A stretch of 43,596 bases of DNA, from sequence record PX871048.2. One strand, given 5' to 3'. The translations under genes were made by a program, and so were the position numbers. This DNA comes from a phage. The notes below the pieces were generated by a model, which saw only the letters and a list, made by a program, of their open reading frames with translations, was not told the origin of the DNA and did no database searches. Positions within the stretch are counted from its first letter, which is position 1, and every line of letters starts with the position of its first letter. Positions 1 through 42,707 of the stretch are shown here, one piece after another.

Positions 1-2337
1 ATGGCTGATGTAGCTAGTTTAGTTGTAAAGGTATCAGAGCAAGGCGCGAAAGCTACATCTGACCGCCTTGATAATCTCTCCAAGTCGGCAAAAGTAGCAG
101 GGGCAGCCGTAGCTGGCCTCGCTTTCATCGTCGCCGCTACCGCGTACAAGGCCGCACAGGAACTGGTAGACTCCCAACGGCAACTGGACAAGATGTCCGC
201 CAGCCTGAAAACGCTAACCGGAAGCACGCAGGGTGCAAGACAGGCGTTAAGCATCCTGCAAGACTTCGCGCGCGACACTCCGTATGGCCTTGAACAGGCG
301 GTGGAGGGATTCCGCAAACTTGTGGCGCTTGGTCTTACACCGTCAGAAGAAGCGTTGCGCTCCTACGGAAACACCGCCGCCGCTATGGGTAAAGACCTAA
401 ATCAGATGATTGAGGCCGTTGCGGACGCCAGTACATTTGAATTTGAGCGCCTTAAAGAATTCGGCATCAAGGCCAAGCAAAACAAAGACGATGTTGAATT
501 TACATTCCAGGGCACTACTACGGTGGTTAAGAAGAGCGCTGCCGACATCGAGCAATACCTGCTCAACATTGGTAACGTAAACTTCGCGGGGGCTATGGCG
601 GACCAGGCCAACACACTTAACGGGGCCATCGCCAGTGCCAGCGATTCCTGGTCGCAGTTAAAAATGACACTGGCTACCAGCCTTGATGTTGGTGCTCTTG
701 CGGGGCCTATCCGGTACATCGATGATTTAATCCAGGAACTTAACGCACAGGTAGCATCCGGTGAACTCGCCGCCGAGATGCGTATGTGGGGTGTCATCGC
801 GTCGGAAGTAGGAAGCGCGATAGAGATGTCGTTCGATGCGGCATTTGGTTTCGTAGGTGATGCGATAAATGGACTTAATGAACTTTGGGATTTTAGCAGT
901 AAAAGTATCACCGACAGCGGCGAACAAACGGCGACAACCATCGCGGAATCAGCTGCCGATGCGCTCGATTTCATCGCAGAAGAATTTACCGCGATGGAGC
1001 GCTTCTTTGAAGATATGGTTAAAGGGGCACAGGGCGCCGGGCGACTAGTGAAAGCAGCCTTCACACCGGGGGAATCTGTAGACGTCGCAAAAAACATTAA
1101 CTTCCAGCTGGGTATGGCACTGGATACTCAGCGTGATGTTGCGGACCTGACCCGTAAAAGTTTCCGCGAACAGGTGGAGGCCCAGCAAAATATTGTCGCG
1201 CTTAAACGCGCAGCATATGACATCGACAAAGAAGCCGCTAAGGAAGAAGGGCTTAGTAAATTTAAGGTAACTGGTACTGGTGGCGGGTCCGAAGATGATA
1301 ACGCTAGCGCAAAAGCCGCCAAGAAAGCTGCGGATGCGTTCGAGCGCCAGAAGAAAGCCGCTGAGGATTTCTACTACCAGTCGATTCATCTCAATGATGA
1401 CGTATTCCAGAAAATAGAAGCCAACCAGGAACAGCAGTTAACCAAGCTACAGGAGTTTTACGGCAATCAGCTTCTTAGCGACCAGCAATACGAAAACGCC
1501 AAAACTCAGATTATGCTGGAAGCGGATACTGCTCGCCAGGAGGAACTCGCTAAGCGAGAGAAAGAAAGGCAGGAAAAGAACCAGAAAGGCGAGGACTTCA
1601 TGGCTCAGATTATGGGCCAGAACGCCGCTGAGCTTGAGCTTCTGGAGATTCAGGAGCAACAAAAACTTGACGTTGCAGACAAATACCGCGAACAGAACCT
1701 TATTAACGAGGAGCAGTACCAAGCAGCGGTTAACGCGATAAATGACCAGTACGCATTGAAACGCGCCAACGCGACAGGTAATGCTTTCGGGATGATGGCG
1801 GATAATATTAAGTCGTCTCTCGGCGAAGCGTCTACGGCGTACAAAGCGTTTGCTATCGCCCAGGCCACCATAGCCACATACACATCCGCTATAGAGGCAT
1901 ATAAGTCCGCGTCCGCGATTCCTATTGTCGGCTGGGTGCTCGGCCCGGTGGCTGCTGCCGCAGCCGTAGCAGCGGGTCTGGCGAACATTGGTAAGATTCG
2001 CTCCGCACGTGAACAGGGGGGTAACCTAGCCGCCGGTCAGTTATCTACCATCGCAGAACGAAACAAACCAGAAGTTATCATGCCAGCAGGCGCATCGCGT
2101 GTTCGCACCGCACAGCAAATGAAAGAGATTATGGGCGAGAACGGCAACAAGTCAGGCGGTGACAGCGTTACAATCGTCAACAACACCACCGGACGTGTTG
2201 ATTCCGCCGTTACAGAGCGTGACGACGAAGGGCGGTTACGTGTTATCATCAGCGAAACAGTATCGGCGGCGTTACAAGACAGCAACAGTGCAATCTCTAA
2301 GTCACGCCGTGCTACACGAAACCAGCCGGGGTATTAA
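1..2337 (+). CDS. tail tape measure protein
   Basis: 778-aa ORF, long A/E/K/Q-rich coiled-coil-like stretches, internal hydrophobic segment GWVLGPVAAAAAVAAGLANIG, sits between putative chaperone ORFs (window end) and tail genes. Confidence 0.8.
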   Translation: MADVASLVVKVSEQGAKATSDRLDNLSKSAKVAGAAVAGLAFIVAATAYKAAQELVDSQRQLDKMSASLKTLTGSTQGARQALSILQDFARDTPYGLEQAVEGFRKLVALGLTPSEEALRSYGNTAAAMGKDLNQMIEAVADASTFEFERLKEFGIKAKQNKDDVEFTFQGTTTVVKKSAADIEQYLLNIGNVNFAGAMADQANTLNGAIASASDSWSQLKMTLATSLDVGALAGPIRYIDDLIQELNAQVASGELAAEMRMWGVIASEVGSAIEMSFDAAFGFVGDAINGLNELWDFSSKSITDSGEQTATTIAESAADALDFIAEEFTAMERFFEDMVKGAQGAGRLVKAAFTPGESVDVAKNINFQLGMALDTQRDVADLTRKSFREQVEAQQNIVALKRAAYDIDKEAAKEEGLSKFKVTGTGGGSEDDNASAKAAKKAADAFERQKKAAEDFYYQSIHLNDDVFQKIEANQEQQLTKLQEFYGNQLLSDQQYENAKTQIMLEADTARQEELAKREKERQEKNQKGEDFMAQIMGQNAAELELLEIQEQQKLDVADKYREQNLINEEQYQAAVNAINDQYALKRANATGNAFGMMADNIKSSLGEASTAYKAFAIAQATIATYTSAIEAYKSASAIPIVGWVLGPVAAAAAVAAGLANIGKIRSAREQGGNLAAGQLSTIAERNKPEVIMPAGASRVRTAQQMKEIMGENGNKSGGDSVTIVNNTTGRVDSAVTERDDEGRLRVIISETVSAALQDSNSAISKSRRATRNQPGY

Positions 2338-2340
2338 CCA

Positions 2341-3723
2341 ATGAGTGATTTGAGATTCCCTATGTCCCTTCGACCAATAGTGTCGAAGGGGTACTCCCAA
2401 ACGCGAGGGAGTAATATCTGGCGTACAGAAGTGCAAGGCGGCGTTCCGCGTCAGGGCCGAGACACATACTTCGAACCGGTGCCGATTAGCGTTACCCTGG
2501 TTGTGTCGTCACTAGGCCGCCAGGCTTTCTATAGCTTTCTGAATAACATAGACGGCGGGGCGTCTTCGTTCATCATGCCTCACGATACCGGTTTAGGTAT
2601 CGAAGACCACCAGGTTCTTATTACGTCTGATATTAGCGATAGCACTGACGATGGTAAGAACTGGGTGATTACGTTCACTGCTACGGCAGAGAGAACAGCG
2701 ATTCAGGAAGATACATGCTTTACGAAGAATCTGCCAGATTTGTTCGGTTGCTACGGCGATTATTTAGGTAGTTTTCTGAAAATATACGCGAACTATGAGA
2801 CTACGTTCCCGCGCATCTGGAGCGATGAAGGGCCCGCAGGATACCCGCCGATTAACCTTCTGGCGTCCGCCCTGGATAGCCGCATTGTGTACGACGGGCC
2901 GCAGGTTTATTACATCAACCGAAACGGCAATCTTGTGCAGTCCGCGGCTAATGAATGGCCTCTTACGTTTATTGATGGTGTCGCTGTCGGGCGTGTGCCG
3001 CCAGAAGGTGCCTCGCGCAATTTGTACATAAATTCGGAAACATGGGCAACTGGACTCCAAACATCTGTGCGGAATAATGCCGAAGTATCACCTCGCGGCG
3101 ATATAACTATGGCGGAAGTCACTGCGACAACTTCAAACTCTGAGCATTTCGCTAACGACAGGGCAATAGGGGTGCAGCAAGATGAGCTGTATTCATATTC
3201 AATATTTGTAAAAGCCGCTAGCGACCCACTAAACCTTTACCTAAGGGTGACAGCGGGCACCGTAGCGAGCACAATGTTCAACCCTGTTACTGGCGCATTT
3301 GTCGCGAACTTAGGAGTTAATTTTGTATCAAAAAATGCCGTTAGGGTTTCCGAGGACACATATAGGGTAACAATGGTCTTCCGGGCTGGCGCAACTAGAA
3401 ACTCTGTTATCCGTGTGCAGCTTGCATCTAGTGTGTCCCCAATATTCGCGGGTACTGGGGGAAATGGCATTTATGTATGGGGGGCGCAGTTAGAGAAATC
3501 GGCAAATACTACCAGTTACATACAGACATCAGCTATTGCAGGAGATAGAGTATCGGCATCGGCAAAAGTAGTAATGAGCGGCGCAACGAGCATTGATATT
3601 ACCTATTCCGATGGTTCTGTGGTAAACGTTCCGTCTGTTAACGGCTACGCCACCATTCCGCAGGCCGATTCTGCGTGGGGGAGTAAATATATCACTCGCA
3701 TTGATTTTAACGTGGACGGTTAA
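2341..3723 (+). CDS. tail structural protein (position suggests distal tail protein)
   Basis: 460-aa ORF starting 4 nt after tape measure stop; synteny only. Confidence 0.5.
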   Translation: MSDLRFPMSLRPIVSKGYSQTRGSNIWRTEVQGGVPRQGRDTYFEPVPISVTLVVSSLGRQAFYSFLNNIDGGASSFIMPHDTGLGIEDHQVLITSDISDSTDDGKNWVITFTATAERTAIQEDTCFTKNLPDLFGCYGDYLGSFLKIYANYETTFPRIWSDEGPAGYPPINLLASALDSRIVYDGPQVYYINRNGNLVQSAANEWPLTFIDGVAVGRVPPEGASRNLYINSETWATGLQTSVRNNAEVSPRGDITMAEVTATTSNSEHFANDRAIGVQQDELYSYSIFVKAASDPLNLYLRVTAGTVASTMFNPVTGAFVANLGVNFVSKNAVRVSEDTYRVTMVFRAGATRNSVIRVQLASSVSPIFAGTGGNGIYVWGAQLEKSANTTSYIQTSAIAGDRVSASAKVVMSGATSIDITYSDGSVVNVPSVNGYATIPQADSAWGSKYITRIDFNVDG

Positions 3724-3726
3724 CTT

Positions 3727-4242
3727 ATGAGCCAGGAATCAGTAGAAGCCGCCTATCGCCGCAAGCTGGCCTCAAATCCCGACGGCGAACTGGACTACAT
3801 TACTCTTGAAATAACGCACCCGCTTCTCTCGAAGCGGTGGTTGCTTGTGCGCGGGACGTCTGACCTGACGGCAACGTTAGAGACCGGAGAAGTAGTTACG
3901 TTTGAGGCCACACCAATGGAGGCTAAAGGGGCCGCCAACAATAACGACATGGACCAGCGGTCGTCGTTCGCATTACCTGATATTGGTAACCAGTTAGATG
4001 ATGAGATGGACAGGATACCACCGGATAATACGGTGTTGCCTAAGTTTATATTCCGCCGTTTCGTCAGCACAGACTTAACCTATCCAGCGGATGGGCCTGT
4101 TGTTTACGAATTGCAGTCGATAAACCAGGAAAAGGGGATATTCACAGCTGACGTCGGCGTCCCTATGTTGAACCAAAGAGCCACCGGTGAACTAATGACC
4201 CCTTCGGTAATCCCATTGTTGCGTGGTGTTTTGTCTACATGA
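3727..4242 (+). CDS. minor tail protein
   Basis: 171-aa ORF tightly packed in tail operon. Confidence 0.45.
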   Translation: MSQESVEAAYRRKLASNPDGELDYITLEITHPLLSKRWLLVRGTSDLTATLETGEVVTFEATPMEAKGAANNNDMDQRSSFALPDIGNQLDDEMDRIPPDNTVLPKFIFRRFVSTDLTYPADGPVVYELQSINQEKGIFTADVGVPMLNQRATGELMTPSVIPLLRGVLST

Positions 4243-4604
4243 ATATTAATTCTTATACTGGGTTGCCGTACGATTTTCGCCGTCGTAATTGCTGGCACCA
4301 CGTGCGTAACGTTCGTACCGACGCTGGTCTTTTTACGCCAGAGTTTAACGTCGCTTCACCAACACAGATTAACGACGCCTTCGAAGAAGGCCATAAAGAC
4401 ACTAAAGGCCTCGTACGCGTAGAAACTCCGCAAAACTTCGATGCCGTGCTGATGGCGACACGGCACAGAAACCGTGTAATCTGGCACGCTGGCGTATATT
4501 ATGATGGTATGGTCAGTCATTGCGAGTTAGCAAGTCGCCAGGTACGGTTAGACCGACTGGAAGACTTGCGCGAAACTTATGCGGAGATAGAATTTTGGCG
4601 CTGA
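4239..4604 (+). CDS. tail assembly protein, possibly NlpC/P60-like (Cys/His motif NCWHH)
   Basis: 121-aa ORF overlapping neighbours by 4 nt; Cys and His residues spaced like a small peptidase domain; weak. Confidence 0.35.
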   Translation: MNINSYTGLPYDFRRRNCWHHVRNVRTDAGLFTPEFNVASPTQINDAFEEGHKDTKGLVRVETPQNFDAVLMATRHRNRVIWHAGVYYDGMVSHCELASRQVRLDRLEDLRETYAEIEFWR

Positions 4605-6184
4605 TATTACATTACACCCGTAACGAAGACGGTACTTTTGACCGCAAACGGTATAACGTACCTCCGATGGAATACGTCGTTGCTAACATCCCAGACGGGG
4701 TACCTGTGCGTATTTACCGCGGCGAGATTGGTGATGATACAGACGTAACGGAAAACTTCGAAGCGCTGAAAGAAGATGACGTTTTCCATATCATCGAGGG
4801 CGCTGGCGGCGGTGGTGGTTTTCTTGGTAAACTCCTGGACCCTTTGGGTGTGCTTAAATTTGTTACCAAGTTGATTTCTCCGTCGCAGAAAACGCCTAAA
4901 ACGAGTTTAGCGAACCAGCAGGCGGAGTCTCCAAACAACAGCCTGACGGACCGAAACAATAAACCGCGTCCGTATGAACGGTCGTATGATATTTGCGGCA
5001 GGGTCCAGACTATCCCTAATGACCTCATGACTACGTATAAGGTCTTCAATGACGCAGGTGTGGTAGTCGAATACGGCTACTATGACGCCGGTCGTGGGTA
5101 TCTTGATATTAAAGCCGAAGACATCACCGACGGCGATACTAAAGTGCAGGAGATTACAGGAACTTCTGTAGCGGTATACGCCCCATTTACATCCCCTAAC
5201 AATACAAATACGCCTCAGCTTCTGGTGGGGGACCCTATCAATCAGAATCTGTACATAACTATTGCCTCGAACGAGGTAGATGGGGCCGTTCTTAAAGCGC
5301 AGAACGATATCAGGGTTAATCCCAGTGATACCGGTGAGATTTCATTGCAGGGGGCAACTGGTGTCGTCCGCGATAACACTGGCGACTCTGCTTTCTCTGA
5401 GATTTTATCGGTTGGGGACATAGCTGTTTTTAACCTTATTCTGGTAAAAGACGTGGCTAACGTCAGTGGTAGCTATACTGTTACATACGTAGATGACTTT
5501 GAGGTAAGAGTAGCCGCCGGAGGGGTGTTGTCAGAATGGCAAAAATTGCCATCGGGGTTCACTCCTTTAACGCAAGGTACCGAAGCATGGATTTCACCGT
5601 CGAACACTTACGATAAGTCGTTAACGGACTGGACTACTTTAAACCGCCTGGAAGTTGAACGCGTAGTAGCCAACATCGCGGCCGCGAATGGTATGTATAA
5701 AGACAACGGCAGTAAATTGCGCACGTCGGTAACTGTCGAGCTTCAGTATCAACTCCTTGATGAAACTGGCGTGCCGTACGGGGATGTTTACTCAAAACAG
5801 GCCGTTATATCAGGTCGTTCTGCGGATTACACAGGTGTTACTATTTACGCCGACTTGCCCATGCGGTCGAAAGTTAGGGTACGGGCCCGCCGTGTTACTA
5901 ACCTTGACCTTAGTTTCGAGGGGACCGTGGTAGACGAGGTTTCCTACATCAACCTTTATGGGCAGGTACGCGACACTACACCGCATTACGGCAACCGTAC
6001 TACCGTGCACTCCGCACGTAAGCGGTACGCGACACTACACCGCATTACGGCAACCGTACTACCGTGCACTCCGCACGTAAGCAGACGCCGCGGGCCGCGG
6101 AGATTAAGCAGCCGCAACTACGTATGGTTGCCACAGAGATGGTGTACAAATACCTCGGCAACGGCGTATTCGACACGGTTATGA
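4520..6184 (+). CDS. large tail-tip / host-specificity protein, N-terminal part; frame broken by 59-bp tandem duplication
   Basis: ORF reads in frame through repeat copy 1 (..TTVHSARK) then enters out-of-frame sequence and stops at 6184; true start probably TTG about 4595 or ATG 4667 rather than 4520. Confidence 0.55.
   Translation: MRVSKSPGTVRPTGRLARNLCGDRILALILHYTRNEDGTFDRKRYNVPPMEYVVANIPDGVPVRIYRGEIGDDTDVTENFEALKEDDVFHIIEGAGGGGGFLGKLLDPLGVLKFVTKLISPSQKTPKTSLANQQAESPNNSLTDRNNKPRPYERSYDICGRVQTIPNDLMTTYKVFNDAGVVVEYGYYDAGRGYLDIKAEDITDGDTKVQEITGTSVAVYAPFTSPNNTNTPQLLVGDPINQNLYITIASNEVDGAVLKAQNDIRVNPSDTGEISLQGATGVVRDNTGDSAFSEILSVGDIAVFNLILVKDVANVSGSYTVTYVDDFEVRVAAGGVLSEWQKLPSGFTPLTQGTEAWISPSNTYDKSLTDWTTLNRLEVERVVANIAAANGMYKDNGSKLRTSVTVELQYQLLDETGVPYGDVYSKQAVISGRSADYTGVTIYADLPMRSKVRVRARRVTNLDLSFEGTVVDEVSYINLYGQVRDTTPHYGNRTTVHSARKRYATLHRITATVLPCTPHVSRRRGPRRLSSRNYVWLPQRWCTNTSATAYSTRL
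5965..6082 (+). repeat. perfect 59-bp tandem direct duplication (5965-6023 and 6024-6082)
   Basis: two adjacent identical 59-nt copies; flanking bases differ; 59 is not a multiple of 3. Confidence 0.9.
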
Positions 6185-9037: not shown

Positions 9038-9064
9038 AAGGCCCCGTCTGGGGCCTTTTTTTTT
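9038..9064 (+). terminator. rho-independent terminator (GGCCCC-GTCT-GGGGCC plus T9)
   Basis: GC hairpin followed by T-run directly after tailspike stop. Confidence 0.75.
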
Positions 9065-11297: not shown

Positions 11298-11612
11298 TTA
11301 TAATTCCTTATATTGTTGAGGTATGTGCTTACTATAATAGTCTGCTATTAGGGTGTCAATCTGTTTTATCGAACCAACGACAAAAACATTCGCGCCACGT
11401 TTACGCATCCGCTCGTGCTCGCGTAACTGGTGTGGGTCTGGCTTCGTGCTTTCATCTTTCTTAACCTCAACGAACCAGATGATGCCGCCGGGGAGGATTA
11501 CCAACAGGTCGGGCGCTCCGTTTCGGCCCTCATACACTATCTTACGAACGAGGCCCCCCAGGGCCTCGAATCGGTCTTTCGCGTATTTCTGTACGCGGCC
11601 CTCTTTAGTCAT
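11298..11612 (-). CDS. VRR-NUC domain nuclease
   Basis: PD-(D/E)XK-like GAPDLLVILPGG..VEVKK motif; start taken at ATG 11612 (MTKEG), coupled to upstream micro-ORF via ATGA. Confidence 0.6.
   Translation of the reverse strand: MTKEGRVQKYAKDRFEALGGLVRKIVYEGRNGAPDLLVILPGGIIWFVEVKKDESTKPDPHQLREHERMRKRGANVFVVGSIKQIDTLIADYYSKHIPQQYKEL
11331..11359 (-). promoter_or_regulatory. sigma70-type promoter, class II (TTGACA-17-TATAGT) with AATAG-N4-CTATT palindrome in spacer
   Basis: minus-strand reading TTGACA CCCTAATAGCAGACTAT TATAGT. Confidence 0.55.
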
Positions 11613-17543: not shown

Positions 17544-17572
17544 ACTATAATAGCGAACTATTCACTTGTCAA
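17544..17572 (-). promoter_or_regulatory. sigma70-type promoter, class II (TTGACA-17-TATAGT) with AATAG-N4-CTATT palindrome
   Basis: minus-strand reading TTGACA AGTGAATAGTTCGCTAT TATAGT; divergent from HTH regulator gene. Confidence 0.6.
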
Positions 17573-17636: not shown

Positions 17637-17852
17637 ATGCAACCATCTGAACTAGGCATCCGTGTAGAACAGCGCCGTAAAGAACTCGGTATCTCTCAGC
17701 GCCGTCTGGCGGTCCTGACCGGGGTTTCCCAGGGCGCAATTAACCAGCTTGCGCTCGGTGTAACTCAGGACGTCCGCCCGGCGACGCTGTTTAAACTGGC
17801 GGAAGTGCTGCAAGTAGACGCCAAGTGGCTGGCGTTCGGTGAAGGGGCTTAA
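17637..17852 (+). CDS. XRE-family (Cro/CI-type) helix-turn-helix transcriptional regulator
   Basis: 71 aa, LGISQRRLAVLTGVSQGAINQLALG HTH signature; RBS AAGGAG; divergent from replication operon. Confidence 0.8.
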   Translation: MQPSELGIRVEQRRKELGISQRRLAVLTGVSQGAINQLALGVTQDVRPATLFKLAEVLQVDAKWLAFGEGA

Positions 17853-21066: not shown

Positions 21067-21095
21067 TTGCACACCCCAACATAATAGGATACTAT
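21067..21095 (+). promoter_or_regulatory. sigma70-type promoter, class I (TTGCAC-17-TACTAT) with AATAG-N4-CTATT palindrome over -10
   Basis: TTGCAC ACCCCAACATAATAGGA TACTAT; identical 33-mer at 42676-42707 on minus. Confidence 0.65.
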
Positions 21096-21129
21096 TCACT
21101 TATCGAAACGAGACAGAGGAGTGAGGGTT

Positions 21130-22371: not shown

Positions 22372-22400
22372 TTGCACACACAGATATAATAGACTACTAT
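22372..22400 (+). promoter_or_regulatory. sigma70-type promoter, class I (TTGCAC-17-TACTAT) with palindrome
   Basis: TTGCAC ACACAGATATAATAGAC TACTAT; leader begins ATCGAAACGAGAGGAG. Confidence 0.65.
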
Positions 22401-22429
22401 TCAGTTATCGAAACGAGAGGAGAGAGAAG

Positions 22430-27624: not shown

Positions 27625-28171
27625 GAAGCTGAAACTCAAGCAGCCATCGCCAGAGGTGGTGCAAGCTGCACATGAAGAAGCTGTTAGCGCAAACCGTCGC
27701 CGTAAACGACCGCGCGGTGAACAGAGCCTTTATCAATCGTCCCGTAATTCCGCAGCGTTGTGGGACACGGACTATTGCGACGAATTGATTCGTTTCTTCG
27801 ACCGCACGTCATGGGAGGCTATGCCGACCGGTGCGCACGGAGACTACAAAGCAGTCATTGCGGATAAACCGCCATCACTGGCTCGCTTCGCCTTACACAT
27901 CGGTGTCACTATCCCGATTATTAAGCTGTGGCTGCGTGAGATTCCGGCTTTCGCAGAAGCCTATGAAACTGCACAGGCGCTGGAAGAGGCGTATTTCACC
28001 GAGACCGGGGCCGCCGGTATCTCGGCTACGTTTGCCGCCGCGAAGCTGGGCCTCGGAAAAGAGAAACCAGTTGAATCAAGCGAAGAAACTGCACCTACTG
28101 AGATTATTTTCAGTGTTGCAGAGCCCGTGGGTAAAATCGTAACAACGAATATGGGTGAGGTAGAGGAATGA
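27623..28171 (+). CDS. terminase small subunit
   Basis: 182 aa directly upstream of and overlapping large terminase; RBS AAGGGGA; start 27623. Confidence 0.55.
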   Translation: MKLKLKQPSPEVVQAAHEEAVSANRRRKRPRGEQSLYQSSRNSAALWDTDYCDELIRFFDRTSWEAMPTGAHGDYKAVIADKPPSLARFALHIGVTIPIIKLWLREIPAFAEAYETAQALEEAYFTETGAAGISATFAAAKLGLGKEKPVESSEETAPTEIIFSVAEPVGKIVTTNMGEVEE

Positions 28172-29418
28172 GTATTCAGCTATCCGCCCCGCAGGCACTG
28201 TTCCTGAATTGCGATAACAAATACAAGGCCTATGTCGGCGGCTTCGGCAGCGGCAAGACATTTGTCGGCTGTCTGGACCTGCTTACTTTTATGCTAAAGC
28301 ATCCCGGTACGCGCCTCGGTTACTTCGGACCAACATACCCGGCCATCCGCGACATCTTCTACCCGACATTCGAGGAAGCGGCTAACCTGCTCGGCCTCGA
28401 TGTTCTGGTTAAATCCGGAGATAAAGAGGTTGTTGTTACCCGCGGTAAGACGGTGCTCGGAACTGTTATCTGCCGCTCGATGGATAACCCCGGCTCGATA
28501 GTCGGCTTCAAAATCGCGGCTGCGGTCGTGGATGAGCTGGACGTATTGAGCCGCGAGAAAGCTGAGCTGGCGTGGAACAAAATCGTAGCCCGTATGCGTC
28601 TTGTTATTCCTGGCGTAACCAACCACATCTCTGTAACCACGACGCCGGAAGGGTTCAAGTTCGTCTACGCCAAGTTCAAAGAGAATCCGACACCGAGTTA
28701 TTCAATGGTGCAGGCTTCCACTCACGAGAACGCGCGGTTCCTGCCGCCTGACTACATTAGTTCGCTGACCGAGACTTACCCCGCGCAACTGATTAACGCG
28801 TACCTGAACGGGGAGTTCGTCAACCTGACATCCGGCAGCGTGTACTACGCCTATGACCGCCGTAAGCATCGCAGCAAAGAGACAATTCAACCGGGCGACA
28901 CGTTGTACATCGGGCAGGACTTCAACGTTACGAAGAACGCCAGCGCCGTGTATGTACAGCGTAAAGATGGCTGGCACGCGGTGGCGGAACTGAAGGGTCT
29001 GTTCGATACGCCAGACACCGTGCGTGTAATTACTGAGAAGTGGAAGTCCCAAGGACACCGCATCGTCGTTTACCCCGACGCCAGCGGCAAGAACCGCAAG
29101 ACAAACTCGGCATCAATCTCAGATATCGCATTACTCCAGCAGGCCGGTTTTGATGTTCGCGCTAAACCAGCCAACCCTCCGGTTAAAGACCGTGTTTTAG
29201 CAGTGAATACCGCGCTGGAAAAAGGTAAGCTGTGGGTTAATGACCACTTATGCCCGGAGATAGCCAAGACGCTGGAGCAGCAGGCATACGACGATAACGG
29301 AGAGCCCGCTAAAGACGGCGTTATCGACCATATGGCGGATGCTCTCGGCTATCCTGTAGTTTACGAGATGCCGGTGGTTAAACCAGTAATCAACATCCCG
29401 GTGACTTTCGCACTTTAA
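28168..29418 (+). CDS. terminase large subunit
   Basis: Walker A GGFGSGKT, Walker B AAVVDELD, nuclease-like C-terminus; 416 aa. Confidence 0.85.
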   Translation: MSIQLSAPQALFLNCDNKYKAYVGGFGSGKTFVGCLDLLTFMLKHPGTRLGYFGPTYPAIRDIFYPTFEEAANLLGLDVLVKSGDKEVVVTRGKTVLGTVICRSMDNPGSIVGFKIAAAVVDELDVLSREKAELAWNKIVARMRLVIPGVTNHISVTTTPEGFKFVYAKFKENPTPSYSMVQASTHENARFLPPDYISSLTETYPAQLINAYLNGEFVNLTSGSVYYAYDRRKHRSKETIQPGDTLYIGQDFNVTKNASAVYVQRKDGWHAVAELKGLFDTPDTVRVITEKWKSQGHRIVVYPDASGKNRKTNSASISDIALLQQAGFDVRAKPANPPVKDRVLAVNTALEKGKLWVNDHLCPEIAKTLEQQAYDDNGEPAKDGVIDHMADALGYPVVYEMPVVKPVINIPVTFAL

Positions 29419-29430
29419 GAGGATTATTCA

Positions 29431-30903
29431 ATGTTAACTATGAACGGTCAGAATCAGGGTGTTAAGACAAAACACCAGGAATGGCTGCAGCACTTCAATA
29501 AATGGCAGAAGGTTCGCCATGCTCTGGAAGGCGACCTTATTCGCTATCTTCGCAACGTCGGGAAGAATGAGCCTGACCCGACCTACGCGGCCCAGCGCCA
29601 GGAAGAATACGAGAACGGCGCCATCTGCTACAACTTCACCAAACGTACCCTGGCGGGGATGGTCGGCAGCGTTATGCGTAAAGACCCCGAGCAGATTATC
29701 CCGCCTGAACTGGAGTACCTGTTGCGCAACGCCGACGGTTCCGGTGTCGGGCTGTGGCAGCACGCGCAGGATACGCTAATGGAGATTGACTCAGTGGGCC
29801 GTGGCGGGTTGCTGGTGGACGCCCCGGAGACAGCCGCAGCAACGGCGGCAGAGCAGAACGCAGGGTTGTTAAACCCGGTCATCGCATTCTACACCGCAGA
29901 GAACATCATCAACTGGCGGCTGACACGCATCGGTTCAGTTAACCGCGTGACGATGGTCGTGCTGCGCGAGGCATGGGAGTACTCAGAACCTGGCGCGGAA
30001 TTTGATACCAAGTTCGGCGAGCAATACCGCGTCCTTGACCTGATTGACGGTCGCTACCGCCAGCGCATCTATCGCTTCGATGCCGAAGGTGGCGCTCAGG
30101 ATGAAGTAATCGAAATATTCCCGGAGCTTGGCGAACAGTTGCGCGGCAAAATCCCGTTCACGTTCATTGGGGCAAGCAACAACGATGCAACCATTGACGA
30201 CGCACCTTTGCTGCCGTTGGCTGAGCTTAATATTGGGCATTTCCGCAACAGCGCGGACAATGAGGAATCCAGCTTCGTTGTAGGGCAGCCCACTCTGTTC
30301 ATCGCCCCTGGCGAGAACATGAGCGTGGAACAGTGGAAAGAAGCCAACCCTCACGGCGTGCGCATGGGGTCGCGCTCAGGCCATAACATCGGTTACGGCG
30401 GCAACGCGTTTCTGGTTCAGGCCGGAGAGAACAACCTCGCCAAACAGAACATGCTGGATAAAGAGAATCAGGCCATCCAGATTGGTGCGCAGCTTATCAC
30501 GCCGACGCAGCAGATTACCGCTGAATCAGCCCGCCTGCAACGTGGCGCTGATACATCCGTAATGGCAACCATTGCGCGTAACGTAAGCATGGCATACACA
30601 GAGGCGTTGCGTTGGGTGGCTGCTATGCTTGGGCTGCGTGAAGGCACGGAGATTGAGTTCAAACTGAACATGGAGTTCTTCCTGCAACCGATGACGGCGC
30701 AAGACCGCGCACAGTGGATGGCAGACATTAACGCTGGTTTACTGCCAGCAACCGCCTACTACTCCGCGCTGCGTAAGGCCGGGGTAACTGACTGGACCGA
30801 CGAGGATATTCAGAACGCTATCGAAGACGCACCGCTGCCGTTAGGCGCCGCTTCTCAGGTAGCAGGAGAAATTCCGCAGTCGGCGCAGCAACAGCAGGAG
30901 TAA
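29431..30903 (+). CDS. portal protein
   Basis: 490 aa immediately after large terminase. Confidence 0.7.
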   Translation: MLTMNGQNQGVKTKHQEWLQHFNKWQKVRHALEGDLIRYLRNVGKNEPDPTYAAQRQEEYENGAICYNFTKRTLAGMVGSVMRKDPEQIIPPELEYLLRNADGSGVGLWQHAQDTLMEIDSVGRGGLLVDAPETAAATAAEQNAGLLNPVIAFYTAENIINWRLTRIGSVNRVTMVVLREAWEYSEPGAEFDTKFGEQYRVLDLIDGRYRQRIYRFDAEGGAQDEVIEIFPELGEQLRGKIPFTFIGASNNDATIDDAPLLPLAELNIGHFRNSADNEESSFVVGQPTLFIAPGENMSVEQWKEANPHGVRMGSRSGHNIGYGGNAFLVQAGENNLAKQNMLDKENQAIQIGAQLITPTQQITAESARLQRGADTSVMATIARNVSMAYTEALRWVAAMLGLREGTEIEFKLNMEFFLQPMTAQDRAQWMADINAGLLPATAYYSALRKAGVTDWTDEDIQNAIEDAPLPLGAASQVAGEIPQSAQQQQE

Positions 30904-30936
30904 AGAAAAAGGCCCCTTAAGGGGCCTTAGTTTTAT
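30904..30936. terminator. bidirectional terminator (perfect palindrome AAGGCCCCTTAAGGGGCCTT flanked by A/T runs)
   Basis: serves + portal gene and convergent minus moron gene. Confidence 0.7.
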
Positions 30937-31178
30937 CGCACTCTCATAAATAGCTTACCTTTGCGTTGCAACAAATCCATACCGACAGCACCTTCGCCAG
31001 ATTTGTTCGGACGGCGCATTAAACTAAAGTTCCATACTCTAGCTTTTGAAGCATCTTTCGCATTGCACACCCAAAGTCTACCATTTTCTCTTAGGTCAAA
31101 TAAGTCCGATATACTGAGATTATTAACCGGTATGAAACCGCCAATGAACTCACGTTCGCAACTAGGTAATTCCTGCAT
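30933..31178 (-). CDS. moron-like hypothetical protein (81 aa) antisense within late module
   Basis: own class I promoter and AGGAGGG RBS, own terminator. Confidence 0.5.
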   Translation of the reverse strand: MQELPSCEREFIGGFIPVNNLSISDLFDLRENGRLWVCNAKDASKARVWNFSLMRRPNKSGEGAVGMDLLQRKGKLFMRVR

Positions 31179-31203
31179 ACACCCTCCTGTTTAAGTTAAC
31201 TGA

Positions 31204-31232
31204 ATAGTACCCTATTATATTGGTGTCTGCAA
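31204..31232 (-). promoter_or_regulatory. sigma70-type promoter, class I variant (TTGCAG-17-TACTAT) with palindrome
   Basis: minus-strand reading TTGCAG ACACCAATATAATAGGG TACTAT. Confidence 0.6.
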
Positions 31233-31276
31233 ATATTATTTTTATGCGTTACACTGGCGATACTACAGGAGGGCAT

Positions 31277-32320
31277 ATGAGCTTACTTACATCCCTAATT
31301 AGCCACCAGATATGGCTACAACGCACCGCATCCGGCGAGGTGAAAGACCTTGCGCCGTTCATTCAGGAAATGCGGGACGAAATCAAACGGCAGGTGTTGC
31401 TGTTCGGCGACGACGGTCGCAGCACCGCGCGACTGAATAAACTGTTACGTGACCTCGAAGAAGCACTGACCGGGCTTACAGGCGACTGGCAAACGAAGCT
31501 GACAGAAGACCTAAAGGAACTGGCGGCGTATGAGGCCGAGTGGAACGTGAAGACACTGACGACTAACGTTAACGCGGAATTTGTTACGCCTACCGCCGAA
31601 CAGGTGTGGGCCGCTGCCGAGTTTCAGCCCTTATCATTAAGTGACAAGCCCGTTGATTTCGCCAAGCTGATGGATGGCTGGGGTGAAACAGAAGTATCGC
31701 GACTGGTAACTGGTGTTAAGATGGGTTTCGTTCAAGGCCAAACCACACGGCAGATTGTTAAAAATGTCGTTGGCGCTGGCGGACTGGCGGACATCTCTGA
31801 GCGCAACGCAGCTACGGTAACCCGCACCGCGCTGTCGCACATATCCAACGAAGCACGCAACGAGACGTACCGTCAGAACGACGACATCATCGAGAAATAT
31901 GAATGGGTATCGACGCTTGACAGCCGTACCAGTACGATTTGCAGAGCCAGGGACGGAATGACGTGGGAAATCGGTAAGGGGCCGATGCCCCCCGCCCATT
32001 TTGGCTGCCGAAGCACCACAGCACCTGTAATCAGTTCAGAATTCGACTTCCTCGATAAAGACGCAAAACGTGCAGCTAAGGGTGCGGACGGCGGAACTCA
32101 GGTAAGCGTGGACACCTCTTACTACGAGTTCCTAAAACAACAACCGGCATGGTTTCAGGATGAAGCACTCGGTCCTGTTCGCGGTAAGATTTTCCGCAAC
32201 AGCGGTATATCGCCGGAAGAGTTTCGCGTAATATCTGTAGATGGTTTCGGGAATCCGCTTACGCTTAAGCAGATGGCGGAACTCGATAAACGTGTTGCTG
32301 ATTATCTGAAAGGGGAATAA
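31277..32320 (+). CDS. head morphogenesis protein (Mu F-like minor head protein)
   Basis: position after portal; CxxC-like STICRARDG..HFGCRST; RBS CAGGAGGG. Confidence 0.6.
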   Translation: MSLLTSLISHQIWLQRTASGEVKDLAPFIQEMRDEIKRQVLLFGDDGRSTARLNKLLRDLEEALTGLTGDWQTKLTEDLKELAAYEAEWNVKTLTTNVNAEFVTPTAEQVWAAAEFQPLSLSDKPVDFAKLMDGWGETEVSRLVTGVKMGFVQGQTTRQIVKNVVGAGGLADISERNAATVTRTALSHISNEARNETYRQNDDIIEKYEWVSTLDSRTSTICRARDGMTWEIGKGPMPPAHFGCRSTTAPVISSEFDFLDKDAKRAAKGADGGTQVSVDTSYYEFLKQQPAWFQDEALGPVRGKIFRNSGISPEEFRVISVDGFGNPLTLKQMAELDKRVADYLKGE

Positions 32321-32784: not shown

Positions 32785-32810
32785 GAAGCCCCGTTAAGGG
32801 GCTTTATTTC
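32785..32810. terminator. bidirectional terminator (AAGCCCC-GTTA-AGGGGCTT)
   Basis: hairpin plus T-rich tail; also ends the convergent minus small gene. Confidence 0.65.
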
Positions 32811-32819
32811 CATCAGAGT

Positions 32820-32915
32820 TCACCATTCCCCTCTATCTGCATCCTCAACCCCGCTAATAGCCCACACAAACAATCCTAAATTAACCAGTAACACAAATGA
32901 AATTGCTATCATCAT
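32820..32915 (-). CDS. small membrane peptide (31 aa), moron
   Basis: GGAGGTGG RBS then ATG; single TM; track start 33005 lies upstream of the promoter so internal ATG used. Confidence 0.45.
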   Translation of the reverse strand: MMIAISFVLLVNLGLFVWAISGVEDADRGEW

Positions 32916-32941
32916 AACCACCTCCACTAGGCATTTACTGA

Positions 32942-32970
32942 ATAGTACGCTATTATGTTGGGGTGTGCAA
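32942..32970 (-). promoter_or_regulatory. sigma70-type promoter, class I (TTGCAC-17-TACTAT) with palindrome
   Basis: minus-strand reading TTGCAC ACCCCAACATAATAGCG TACTAT. Confidence 0.65.
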
Positions 32971-40056: not shown

Positions 40057-40263
40057 TCACTCACTTTTGAATGGCATTTCGTAGAAGTTAGTTAACTGAC
40101 CTCTGTCACTCCGTTCTGTCATCTCTTTTGTCGCCTCTTCCTTGCTACCTACGGCGTAAATATCAACCCACTCATCCCATTCTTCGTCATATACGCGGAT
40201 AACGTATATTGCCCCCATTGTGCCTTCACGCATTTGGGTAAATCCCCAGGATTCTATTGGCAA
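40057..40263 (-). CDS. hypothetical acidic protein (start uncertain)
   Basis: 68-aa ORF, last gene of minus island. Confidence 0.4.
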   Translation of the reverse strand: MPIESWGFTQMREGTMGAIYVIRVYDEEWDEWVDIYAVGSKEEATKEMTERSDRGQLTNFYEMPFKSE

Positions 40264-40795
40264 CCGTGGCCGCGGTTAATGTAATCTCACCAGGAATGAT
40301 GGCGACGTCATGGCATACTACCCCATCAATATCGTACAGGTAGCCACGGCTATCCCCGTCAAACGTGTAGCCGTCTCGGTGCAAGCGGACGATTCGCACG
40401 TCATGCCCAGCGGCGACGATAGGGGCAACTTCACTGGCAAACCCACCGTCGGACACCACAAAAACTTCGTCGCCGTCAGGCAAGTTTTCAGCGAGATACT
40501 TACCGAAATAATCATTGCCAAGTACAGGCTTAATGAATTGCTCCGAGATAGCAATCATGAACTGACGTCGCGACAACCCATTAAGGAAACATTCTGGCTT
40601 TTCTTTCCGTGCCCGGTCGTCGTAGCCGTCGAGAAATTCGTGGTAAGCATCCGGGCCTAACGCTGCCCGAGCAATATTGAACATTGGATTCTTGAAACTG
40701 GTAGTTCCTTTCGCAAAGCCCATTTCTACCATCGCCATAGCAAGCGTGTCTTTCCCGCAACCCGCAGGGCCATTAAGGATAATTACCTTAGCCAT
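40226..40795 (-). CDS. P-loop nucleotide kinase, dNMP kinase-like
   Basis: Walker A LNGPAGCGKDT and VSDGGFASE..VRIVRLHRDG resemble T4 gene 1-type dNMP kinase; from memory. Confidence 0.55.
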   Translation of the reverse strand: MAKVIILNGPAGCGKDTLAMAMVEMGFAKGTTSFKNPMFNIARAALGPDAYHEFLDGYDDRARKEKPECFLNGLSRRQFMIAISEQFIKPVLGNDYFGKYLAENLPDGDEVFVVSDGGFASEVAPIVAAGHDVRIVRLHRDGYTFDGDSRGYLYDIDGVVCHDVAIIPGEITLTAATVANRILGIYPNA

Positions 40796-41280
40796 TATTT
40801 ATTGCTCCCGTGTGATTTTAAGTGTGTAGAGTTCCCGTTACAGTCGTATTCAGTAACCGCGTGCGTAGTGACTCCTAAGCCGCGGAAATGCTTAATCACC
40901 GCGGGCGAGTCGTCGAATGCGCACAATATTCTCTCCAGCCCGATAGCACGCAACACCTCTTCTTTAATTACGATGTCTTTTCTGTTGTCGTGTTTGCTGC
41001 GCATGATTAGCTGATAAAATTCGACGCGGTGGCGCTGCAGCCACATTCTGGTTTCTTTTTCTGCATCATCACTGCGGCCCGTTAAAATAATAACGGCATA
41101 GCGACGATTAAGGGCGTTACACAGTTCGATGTTATCTTTAATGGGCGCGTCATCTTTGCAGGCCATGTTAAAAGGCTTCCACGCCCATGTTTCGTTGTAG
41201 TTATCTTTCGGTAGCAGGTGTAAACGATGAGTACCGTCCGCCAATGTCCCGTCTAAATCGAAAATCACAATATCTTTCAT
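40795..41280 (-). CDS. HAD-superfamily phosphatase
   Basis: N-terminal FDLDGTL motif plus downstream ILTGR and FDD motifs. Confidence 0.6.
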   Translation of the reverse strand: MKDIVIFDLDGTLADGTHRLHLLPKDNYNETWAWKPFNMACKDDAPIKDNIELCNALNRRYAVIILTGRSDDAEKETRMWLQRHRVEFYQLIMRSKHDNRKDIVIKEEVLRAIGLERILCAFDDSPAVIKHFRGLGVTTHAVTEYDCNGNSTHLKSHGSNK

Positions 41281-42407
41281 CCCAGCATCTCCGGTGAAAT
41301 AGTTAAACGTGCAACCTCACCATATTCGGCGCTATAAGTAATTACATTTGCACTGCGCCCTGACATCCAACCGCCGCGTGAGGCATAGGCGTCTTTAGCC
41401 GCTAAGGTTCGGTGTTGCTCAACAATCATGTTACGGCTTTCTACAATCTTCTGATGGTGCAGGTGGCCTACGTGGGCGTAGCTGTAAACACTCTCTCCGA
41501 ACGCTTTGCGGAACTTAGCAATCATTACCGGTTCGATAGCGTCGAATCGTGCTTTATGCCCGTGATGGAAGAACAGCGTCGTTTTGCCGTGTTGCACCAT
41601 CTTGTAAACATCCGGCGACGTATCGACGAACACACGAGGCTCATTGTCGTACAGCGTGCTGAACATCTCAGCCAGCCAAATCATTCCGCTTTCGTCGTGG
41701 TTCCCTTGCACGATAAGCAAGCGAACATTTTTATGCTTAACGAGTGCCATATCAACAACACGGCGGACCATACGAATCATGTAGCGGACCAGTTTCTGAT
41801 AGCGCGTGTCCGCGTCAAGAACATGACCACTCGCTGGCGTAACCGCATCCAGGCTATCGAAGTGTGCAAGGTCACCTAGCAGATTAATAACACCCGTTCC
41901 TGCATCCGGCGCTTTCTGAAACGCAGCATCGAACCAGCGAGAGAACAGGTCTTCCGCAATCTTCATATCCCAGTCGTCGCCGCTCTCGTCGGCCCAGGCC
42001 AGCATACCGAGATGGAAATCAGACACAGTGTAAAGGTTGAGTAGTTTATCGTCGCGTTTAGCGCGGGCGGCTTTAACAGGCGCAACTGGCGTAATCTCTG
42101 ACTTCATGCCTTCGATTACGGCTTTCATCAACTCGACCTGACGTTCGGCGTCAGTGTCTGTCTTAACCCATTGCAACTTAGTGTTGCCGGACTCATCCAC
42201 CAGGGACGACGTCCCTTTAATCTTGTAGCCGTCAGGAACAAGGTGACTAACGTCACGCCCGTGACCCACGCCTTTCTTGGCCAGCTTCGCTTTACGGATA
42301 CGAATAACGCGGTCTGAGATGCCGTATTTACGGGCAATGTCGATATTCTTCATCCCGGCGTTCAATTCTTCCTGTAACTGTTCGTCGGTTATTTTCTTCC
42401 GGGCCAT
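41277..42407 (-). CDS. calcineurin-like metallophosphoesterase with N-terminal HTH
   Basis: DFHLG, GDLAHFD, GNHD, HHGH, GHLHH motifs; N-terminus IDIARKYGISDRVIRIRK. Confidence 0.6.
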   Translation of the reverse strand: MARKKITDEQLQEELNAGMKNIDIARKYGISDRVIRIRKAKLAKKGVGHGRDVSHLVPDGYKIKGTSSLVDESGNTKLQWVKTDTDAERQVELMKAVIEGMKSEITPVAPVKAARAKRDDKLLNLYTVSDFHLGMLAWADESGDDWDMKIAEDLFSRWFDAAFQKAPDAGTGVINLLGDLAHFDSLDAVTPASGHVLDADTRYQKLVRYMIRMVRRVVDMALVKHKNVRLLIVQGNHDESGMIWLAEMFSTLYDNEPRVFVDTSPDVYKMVQHGKTTLFFHHGHKARFDAIEPVMIAKFRKAFGESVYSYAHVGHLHHQKIVESRNMIVEQHRTLAAKDAYASRGGWMSGRSANVITYSAEYGEVARLTISPEMLG

Positions 42408-42445
42408 GCTTATGTCCTCATGTGTAGGATTTGTCCTATACTAGC

Positions 42446-42637
42446 TTACTTCTCGTTAACATTCGAGTTGCAAGCCCAGATTAAAATAAAGACCCACGGC
42501 AGCAGAGCCCAGCCAAGAAACAGGTTAGCCATGAATATTGCCAACTTCGCTTTATGGCCACGCATATGGGCTACTAAAAACGGGATAAAATAAACTAAAA
42601 CGATAATGATTAAGAAGAACATAGTAATGCCAGTCAT
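42446..42637 (-). CDS. superinfection-immunity-like small membrane protein
   Basis: YFIPFLVAHMRGHKAKLAIFMANLFLGWALLPW matches the conserved pattern of Imm-type proteins; RBS CAGGAG; own promoter. Confidence 0.55.
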   Translation of the reverse strand: MTGITMFFLIIIVLVYFIPFLVAHMRGHKAKLAIFMANLFLGWALLPWVFILIWACNSNVNEK

Positions 42638-42675
42638 GGTGTAGCTCCTGTTTGAGTTAACATTGTTGGTGTAAG

Positions 42676-42707
42676 TGAATAGTATCCTATTATGTTGGGG
42701 TGTGCAA
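42676..42707 (-). promoter_or_regulatory. sigma70-type promoter, class I (TTGCAC-17-TACTAT), identical 33-mer to promoter at 21067
   Basis: minus-strand reading TTGCACACCCCAACATAATAGGATACTATTCAC. Confidence 0.65.

Follow-up and report, generated by a model that had tools for sequence, protein, structure and literature searches.

Why does a lytic phage carry, in the midst of its late genes and against their direction, a small gene with what appear to be its own promoter, ribosome-binding site (RBS) and terminator? The question is raised by sequence record PX871048.2, a phage DNA of 43,596 nucleotides (the window, to which all positions refer unless another record is named), in which an open reading frame (ORF) of 81 amino acids (aa), here called ORF81, lies on the minus strand between the genes for the portal and for a head-morphogenesis protein of the Mu-F/SPP1-gp7 type (Mu-F-like). 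We consider it probable that this locus is a moron-type accessory cassette of ~330 bp (~30905..31235), built from multi-copy modules of the phage itself and working by the mechanism proposed below. The modules are a predicted TTGCAC/G-17-TACTAT promoter with an AATAG-N4-CTATT dyad and a GGCCCC-loop-GGGGCC terminator. Comparison with relatives shows that promoter, 5' untranslated region (5'UTR), Shine-Dalgarno (SD) sequence and terminator form, as judged from alignments, a constant frame in which ORFs are exchanged precisely from start codon to stop codon. On the same comparison ORF81 is one such cargo, found depending on the phage at the junction of the portal and Mu-F-like genes (slot A), at the junction of an Ig-like 153-aa gene and the spanin gene (slot B), or as a paralogue in an early operon.

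An antisense cassette inside the structural operon

The window represents the genome of a Kagunavirus (Guernseyvirinae). A megablast search with 30400..31800 matched 206 GenBank phage records, nearly all of them Escherichia or Salmonella phages of the Guernseyvirinae, and the closest were Kagunavirus records at 87-91% identity. Kagunaviruses are lytic siphoviruses with genomes of 41-45 kb (PMC9825357, PMC11990801). The locus and its neighbours are laid out as follows, with the Ig-like 153-aa gene as a further flanking gene beyond the Mu-F-like gene.

30909..30928, either strand: hairpin terminator AAGGCCCC-TTAA-GGGGCCTT, a GC-rich 8-bp stem 4 nt past the ORF81 stop codon
30933..31178, minus strand: ORF81, 81 aa, ATG start
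31182..31188, minus strand: ORF81 SD sequence AGGAGGG, 4 nt before the ATG, where the slot-specific 5'UTR joins cargo-specific sequence
31197..31232, minus strand: 36-bp promoter module in its slot-A variant, predicted -35 TTGCAG at 31227..31232 and -10 TACTAT at 31204..31209
31203..31216, either strand: dyad AATAG-N4-CTATT overlapping the -10, a candidate operator
31233..31276, plus strand: slot-A frame leading up to the Mu-F-like start codon, with the AGGAGGG of the Mu-F-like gene
28168..29418: large terminase gene
29431..30903: DUF4055 portal gene
31277..32320, plus strand: Mu-F/SPP1-gp7-type head-morphogenesis gene

The original prediction had described a minus-strand 81-aa ORF with a strong RBS, a TTGCAG-17-TACTAT promoter containing a palindrome, and a bidirectional terminator. 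ORF and RBS are where it placed them, and the promoter string matches exactly at 31204..31232 on the minus strand. The palindrome corresponds to the dyad over the -10, which is strongly enriched in the window (see below), and the hairpin at 30909..30928 was flagged as a terminator on both strands, just outside the interval first assigned to the unit. Its description as a moron between plus-strand late genes, with signals of its own, agrees with spacing and composition. Portal and Mu-F-like genes are separated by 373 bp in the window, compared with 65-72 bp in phage K1ind2 and in ~23 of the 70 IMG/VR loci, recovered with a Mu-F-like protein, that make up our survey sample. The GC (guanine plus cytosine) fraction is 0.42 in ORF81, compared with 0.57 in the portal gene, 0.53 in the Mu-F-like gene and 0.51 in the genome; it drops to 0.39-0.43 across the locus from 0.53-0.59 in the flanks.

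Coding capacity of ORF81

Twelve GenBank phage records contain ORF81 homologues at 77-98% identity, and three records of Salmonella phages contain homologues at 36%. A large protein collection holds 18 ORF81 clusters and 6 for the distant branch; the word-indexed search returned only close Kagunavirus homologues, and the window contains no second copy. Twenty-two alignment columns are invariant, including M-R-x-P-N-K-S-G-x-G and G-K-L, and the family motif reads W-x4-(M/L)-R-(R/K)-P-N-(K/S)-(S/T)-G ... G-K-L. By the distribution of its members, this is an ORFan family restricted to Guernseyvirinae-like phages.

The ratio of nonsynonymous to synonymous substitution rates (dN/dS) is 0.06-0.08 in comparisons with slot-B copies and 0.16 between two early-operon copies. 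Compared with the early-operon copies, the window copy differs at 44 of ~50 synonymous sites, which is saturated, with dN at 0.146. The frame stays open in homologues down to 36% identity. The original prediction had looked to conservation as coding sequence, which these values bear out; judged by its substitution pattern, ORF81 is a real gene under purifying selection.

An overlapping plus-strand ORF at 30961..31194 (77 aa) is likewise open in the window and in close relatives, and the annotation of phage RP180 uses that strand. The alternative would be that this ORF, or none at all, is the real gene. One or two stops interrupt the plus-strand frame in three of the four diverged homologues tested, which ruled it out as a candidate. 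With dN/dS far below 1 in the ORF81 frame, and an RBS and promoter that suit the minus strand only, we give a wrong coding call practically no credence. A homing-endonuclease remnant was also rejected as the identity of ORF81, on account of the purifying selection and the absence of a nuclease motif.

Promoter and terminator modules

The signals around ORF81 recur elsewhere in the genome. The 12 hexamer bases of the promoter are not significant by themselves, with 7 matches compared to 2.7 expected and 5 of 100 shuffles reaching 7. Five of the seven hexamer sites, though, also share the spacer and the +1 region, giving the consensus 36-mer TTGCACACCCCAACATAATAGGATACTATTCAGTTA. These copies start at 21067 and 22372 on the plus strand and at 31232, 32970 and 42707 on the minus strand, each with at most 6 mismatches; all other sites in the window have more than 10 mismatches. 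The slot-A copy is suitably spaced from the RBS downstream of it, and transcription from it would start near 31196..31199. None of the five copies heads a virion-structure gene. Besides the two in slots A and B, the copies are:

21067..21102, plus strand: before the first small-ORF operon, in which phages NTEC3 and phiSD1 carry an ORF81 paralogue
22372..22407, plus strand: before the second small-ORF operon
42672..42707, minus strand: before genes for a small membrane ORF, a metallophosphoesterase-like protein, a PNKP-type phosphatase and a 189-aa protein

The original prediction had likened the ORF81 promoter to early promoters. The same module family does precede the two operons at 21067 and 22372, which consist of small ORFs and adjoin the replication block, as well as the non-structural operon at 42707. 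The latter heads a minus-strand block within the structural region (40226..42707) that comprises a small membrane ORF, a 376-aa metallophosphoesterase-like gene, a 161-aa PNKP-type HAD phosphatase gene and a 189-aa ORF, and that may be a nucleic-acid repair or counter-defence set.

Across the genus the promoter module is conserved; its TTGCAG variant, together with the UTR, is specific to slot A whatever the cargo. The authors of the fBC-Eco01 genome, using PHIRE, found the same repeated motif and labelled it 'phage promoters' (PMC9825357); the slot-A copy is omitted from that annotation.

The hairpin at 30909..30928 has a predicted stability, with its context, of -17.5 to -18.8 kcal/mol. The minus strand has the better T-run (TTTTTCTTT; plus strand, AGTTTTAT), and read on the minus strand it is the standard module of the phage, ATAAAACTAAGGCCCC-N4-GGGGCCTTTTT. 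This module occurs three times in the window (9040, 30911 and 40035), each time at a convergent gene junction, and at 9040 and 40035 it closes plus-strand blocks. A variant, AAGCCCC..GGGGCTT, closes slot B at 32786..32804. Since the standard module appears in the minus-strand reading, the terminator belongs to the ORF81 unit and serves the portal gene only in its weaker direction. It would end the ORF81 transcript short of the portal gene, which would otherwise be read antisense, and would stop plus-strand portal transcripts less efficiently.

Two cargo slots in a constant frame

The structural region of the window holds a second cassette of the same kind.

32786..32970, minus strand: slot-B cassette, with a promoter at 32935..32970, a hydrophobic peptide ORF of 31-35 aa and a terminator at 32786..32804

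The slot-B peptide of the window is MMIAISFVLLVNLGLFVWAISGVEDADRGEW, and a related 33-aa peptide occupies slot B of five other loci. When slot-A copies are aligned with slot-B copies, the homology has exact limits, the -35 at one end and the terminator stem at the other, and the flanks are particular to each slot. Each slot also has its own 5'UTR whatever the cargo, TCAGTTAACTTAAACAGGAG in slot A and TCATTACATCGAAACGAGGAG in slot B. Within slot A the constant parts are the terminator, the promoter with its UTR, and the 44 bp leading to the Mu-F-like start codon; the latter (31233..31276) are common to all filled slot-A genomes and unlike the sequence of empty sites.

The ORF between these constant parts varies. 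Slot A encodes 81 aa in the window, 94 aa in EF2-1, 93 aa in AMO_3701M and 173 aa in fBC-Eco01, and a 173-aa cargo is also held by survey locus L042. The cargo ORFs of the window, EF2-1 and fBC-Eco01 share the same TAA, 4 nt before the stem. Homology between slots or between cargoes ends at the -35 or SD on one side and at the stop codon or terminator on the other. AMO_3701M has a slot-B-type UTR in slot A, which implies that crossovers also fall inside the promoter. In the empty 65-72 bp junctions (L035, L038, L057 and K1ind2, our L006), a degenerate remnant of the promoter, TAATAGCATACTAT, immediately precedes the terminator, a pattern resembling that of a former cassette which has lost its cargo.

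The cargo ORFs of L043, L048, L059 and L079 (IMG/VR) and of L004 (TS6) end in K-A-P-stop. Their reading frames continue into the stem of the terminator (AAG GCC CCn) and take their TAA from the hairpin loop. With such ends in stem and loop, the terminator doubles as a universal ORF end after recombination.

Across the survey, slot A is an empty junction in ~23 of the 70 loci, and 6 distant relatives have overlapping genes; the remaining loci have ~0.1-1.5 kb between portal and Mu-F-like genes, filled mainly by ORFs on the minus strand. Eleven loci have the promoter core in slot A, and 29 have it in slot B. Behind the promoter, 23 cargo families occur across all loci, most of them small ORFans, and 6 families are found in both slots. 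Presence or absence in relatives, which the original prediction had suggested as informative, therefore takes three forms: depending on the phage, the junction holds ORF81, nothing, or another cargo.

Pfam matches identify several slot-A inserts in L048, L100, L059, L033 and L079. They are DNA methyltransferases of the N6/N4 and D12 (Dam-type) families, a Vut_1/YhhQ-type transporter beside a 244-aa ORF lacking a Pfam match, a KilA-N protein (below the Pfam threshold) and a CapR/treble-clef zinc-finger protein. Some of these inserts come from distant relatives without the promoter core, and the rest of the cargo consists of ORFans. The slot-A cargo set suggests an anti-restriction and accessory hotspot, and methyltransferase and transporter cargo is consistent with pre-replicative accessory functions.

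Neighbouring genes vary as well. The Mu-F-like gene is enlarged to 586-619 aa by an intein (PF14890) in L026 and L029 and by a C-terminal ADPrib_exo_Tox domain (PF03496) in L028 and L032. Another variable junction lies between the terminase and portal genes, where L014 has an HNH_3 endonuclease gene (4249..4863).

Genomic contexts of ORF81

ORF81 itself is found in three contexts: antisense in slot A, antisense in slot B, and in sense within an early operon. The exact window protein is indexed in 39 metagenome/SRA assembly blocks, and all six among the places listed are slot A, antisense. A 98%-identical protein is present in both slots. A 96%-identical one is indexed in 86 blocks, with all ten among the places listed in slot B. 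Many relatives carry ORF81 in slot B, including RP180, GZMU_E2010 and LM08P2 (the last placed by alignment), and the distant TS6 branch has it in a comparable position, upstream of the scaffold gene; among cultured isolates, none with the gene in slot A was found. In NTEC3 and phiSD1, a 77%-identical paralogue in sense orientation stands second after the 21067-type promoter and lacks a promoter or terminator of its own. Phage 590B and other records have copies, at 76-78% identity, similar to this paralogue.

A frame that persists while its contents change raises the question whether the transcription unit, rather than the protein, is under selection. Antisense transcription and a two-way terminator could insulate or tune the portal/head boundary, with the ORF incidental. 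Retention of the terminator and degenerate promoter remnant even in empty-site phages fits this idea, as does the tolerance of very different cargo ORFs in the same frame. However, ORF81 has a strong RBS and a dN/dS of 0.06-0.16, indicating strong purifying selection, and the protein is kept in all three contexts, including the sense position where the unit's own promoter and terminator are absent. We regard selection on the transcription unit as very unlikely and retain the interpretation of ORF81 as protein-coding cargo.

Public annotations at several cassettes look unreliable. In RP180 (L001, MK737937), the annotated gene at 3380..3733 is on the wrong strand over the ORF81 homologue; in phiSD1 (L003), the homologue at 3001..3255 is labelled 'tail length tape measure protein'; and in EF2-1 (L007), the slot cargo at 831..1115 is labelled 'Efflux RND transporter permease subunit'. 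The label 'DNA polymerase III sliding clamp' for the 173-aa cargo of fBC-Eco01 (L008, 3032..3553) was rejected, its Pfam match of 17 bits falling below the cut-off of 27.

A repeated dyad and a candidate regulator

The dyad AATAG-N4-CTATT occurs in 8 perfect copies in the window. With at most one mismatch there are 12, compared to 0.99 expected, and none of 100 shuffles reached 12; fBC-Eco01 has 7 perfect copies compared to 0.05 expected. In the window, dyads lie at 11336, 14993, 17549, 17593, 21083, 22388, 31203, 32941 and 42678. All five promoter module copies carry the dyad over the -10. Three perfect dyads outside the TTGCAC promoters lie in the spacer of leftward TTGACA-17-TATAGT/TATATT promoters (11359, 15016 and 17572) within the replication block. 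The dyad therefore overlaps the -10 or the spacer of two promoter architectures, TTGCAC-17-TACTAT and the near-consensus TTGACA-17-TATAGT, and probably represents a single operator common to all pre-late transcription.

One gene is placed to encode a protein that might bind this site.

17637..17852, plus strand: XRE/Cro-type helix-turn-helix (HTH) gene, 71 aa, HTH_3 E = 1e-12, preceded by the dyads at 17549 and 17593

It stands alone on the plus strand within the minus-strand replication block, divergent from a dyad-bearing TTGACA promoter, and the same arrangement of gene and dyads is found in fBC-Eco01 (gene 052). As a hypothesis only, its product is a candidate autoregulated repressor of the dyad promoters. 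The transcriptome paper on K1B4 names an HTH gene, a possible counterpart of the one at 17637..17852, among its 4 early genes.

The arrangement resembles early promoters regulated by Cro/CI-type HTH proteins, where several promoters have a short dyad across their -10 or spacer and a small XRE-family HTH gene, itself preceded by dyads, diverges from such a promoter. In contrast to those systems, the present phage is lytic and has no lysogeny module, and the pairing of protein and operator is here a guess from gene order and repeats.

Proposed mechanism

ORF81 lies on the strand opposite to the late operon, so independent expression is necessary. In our model, host sigma-70 RNA polymerase would fire the cassette promoter before the late genes and independently of the surrounding late operon, and the terminator would block antisense read-through into the portal gene. 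Expression might later be shut off by a phage protein binding the dyad, for which the XRE-type HTH protein (17637..17852) would be the best candidate, by head-on late transcription, or by both. Cargo would move between slots, and between co-infecting phages, by recombination in the shared promoter/SD and terminator sequences.

Several observations weigh against this model. A generic sigma-70 scan did not flag 31204..31232, whose hexamers match the consensus at 7 of 12 positions; as both the scan and the 12-base pattern fail, the case for a promoter rests on the shared 36-mer and its comparative conservation. Near-consensus TTGACA-17-TATAGT promoters exist elsewhere, on the minus strand at 11359, 15016 and 17572, and may be the true immediate-early class, which would make the TTGCAG/C class delayed or activator-dependent. 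The conserved spacer could stem from gene conversion among the copies and not from factor binding. Recombination at the modules is deduced from breakpoints. ORF81 was found in only 2 of the ~70 IMG/VR loci, both times in slot B, which makes the slot-A arrangement a minority state. Finally, while the original interpretation is supported in every part that sequence can test, the early timing of ORF81 is itself inferred from sequence. The sole Kagunavirus time course (PMC12645636) has bins of 5-120 min and names 4 'early' genes without mappable coordinates, and is too coarse for this locus.

The first two of these observations bear on an alternative in which the promoter class is middle or delayed, requires a phage activator or a modified RNA polymerase, and expresses ORF81 together with the replication genes. 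The -35 TTGCAG is weak (3 of 6 positions), which keeps such a class in consideration; in addition, positions outside the hexamers are nearly invariant, and the near-consensus promoters serve other operons. On the other hand, the same module heads small-ORF operons resembling classic early genes, and the dyad also covers the spacer and -10 of near-consensus promoters, a position more typical of a repressor operator than of an activator site. No activator candidate was identified. We judge delayed expression unlikely and favour early firing by the host polymerase.

The ORF81 protein

ORF81 encodes a protein of 9.3 kDa with an isoelectric point of 9.9 and no membrane segment. An AlphaFold2 model from 17 sequences (pLDDT 81, pTM 0.69) predicts an alpha/beta fold with the element order H-E-H-E-loop-H-E (H, helix; E, strand), placing the invariant RPNKSG in the loop before the last helix. 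Neither Foldseek against PDB (best E = 1.9) nor BFVD (best E = 0.014, to uncharacterised phage proteins) gave a significant match, and searches of Pfam, PHROGs, PADLOC and PDB sequences likewise returned nothing for the window protein. Of the distant family members, only two match the unnamed phrog_30617, and four have a weak PADLOC match to PDC-M02B (E = 0.0048). An exhaustive HMMER profile search of 1.84 billion representatives gave 5 clusters, none informative. They include two new small distant phage proteins, on contigs too short for context, and a 3108-aa protein with seven short stretches that we assume to be a repetitive chance match. Homology and structure prediction, which the original prediction had proposed for the product, thus yielded homologues in Guernseyvirinae-like phages and a predicted fold, and no known family or fold to which they could be assigned.

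Given the lack of such a match, the function of ORF81 is inferred from context alone. With low confidence, we suggest an early-class accessory factor for host takeover or counter-defence, whose RPNKSG loop perhaps, at equally low confidence, binds nucleic acid or another phosphorylated ligand. ORF81 could instead be a weapon against competing phages, that is, a moron of the superinfection-exclusion or defence type. Morons classically carry such genes (PMC3594210), the promoter at 42707 heads a small membrane ORF annotated as 'superinfection immunity protein' in fBC-Eco01, and the four distant members share the weak PDC-M02B match. However, the window protein itself lacks a PADLOC match and is soluble and basic, without a membrane segment, and other slot cargo includes DNA methyltransferases, which protect the phage from restriction. 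An anti-competitor role therefore seems to us improbable, and we prefer host takeover or counter-defence.

Comparison with morons and PeSL cassettes

Like the morons of lambdoid and HK97-type phages (Juhala/Hendrix; PMC3594210), the locus adds a gene between late genes that neighbour each other in relatives; the added gene comes with a predicted promoter and a terminator of its own, differs in GC content, and has spread horizontally among related phages. In contrast to them, the present phage is virulent, which excludes expression from a prophage, and the promoter and terminator were not imported but are multi-copy modules belonging to the phage itself. The unit also runs antisense to the late operon, and the same ORF is an ordinary early-operon gene in relatives. 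At the level of sequence the locus is a moron, its promoter activity being predicted.

The shuffling of cassettes resembles, by its breakpoints, the PeSL system of T4-like phages (PMC2839356, PMC4122927). There, repeated motifs of a sigma-70-type promoter and a stem-loop flank small ORFans in variable regions, breakpoints of insertions, deletions and replacements between close relatives fall in the motifs, and terminators shield late virion genes from early transcription. However, a T4 PeSL is one composite motif of ~50 bp, whereas here promoter and terminator form opposite ends of the cassette and abut only in empty sites, where the promoter is a degenerate remnant. Each genome has ~5 promoters and 3-4 terminators here, compared with ~50 PeSLs in T4-like phages. 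Here the phage is a siphovirus, and the cassettes are antisense and occupy two separate slots within the structural operon. Mini-circles belong to the PeSL picture, whereas the Kagunavirus cassettes are known from sequence alone. Because promoter and terminator are separate cassette ends rather than a composite motif in ~50 copies, the cassettes fall outside the strict definition of PeSLs.

A more far-reaching version of our model would have two dedicated cargo slots with the modules as portable recombination boundaries, a siphovirus counterpart of PeSLs that would let co-infecting phages trade early-expressed accessory genes one ORF at a time; ORF81 as an early effector with a new fold, for example in anti-defence or host shut-off through its RPNKSG loop; and one small XRE repressor silencing the whole promoter class. 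We regard this combination as possible, though doubtful.

Implications for Kagunavirus biology

Work is under way to develop Kagunaviruses, which are small lytic coliphages, as chassis for therapy and synthetic biology, and they were recently included in the BASEL collection (PMC11990801). Insertions are naturally tolerated at the portal/head-morphogenesis junction and behind the Ig-like gene, and both sites offer a ready frame of promoter, RBS and terminator, useful for payloads. Their cargo, from methyltransferases to ORFans such as ORF81, provides a compact list of candidates for counter-defence and host takeover, and could account in part for the way isolates differ in host range or in their sensitivity to restriction. 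The shared dyad points to a simple switch that would control pre-late gene expression in this genus. The moron and PeSL concepts are extended to another phage group, and current understanding is not overturned. The ORF81 cassette is a well-formed and fairly ordinary moron; the main interest lies in the two-slot cargo system and the shared operator.

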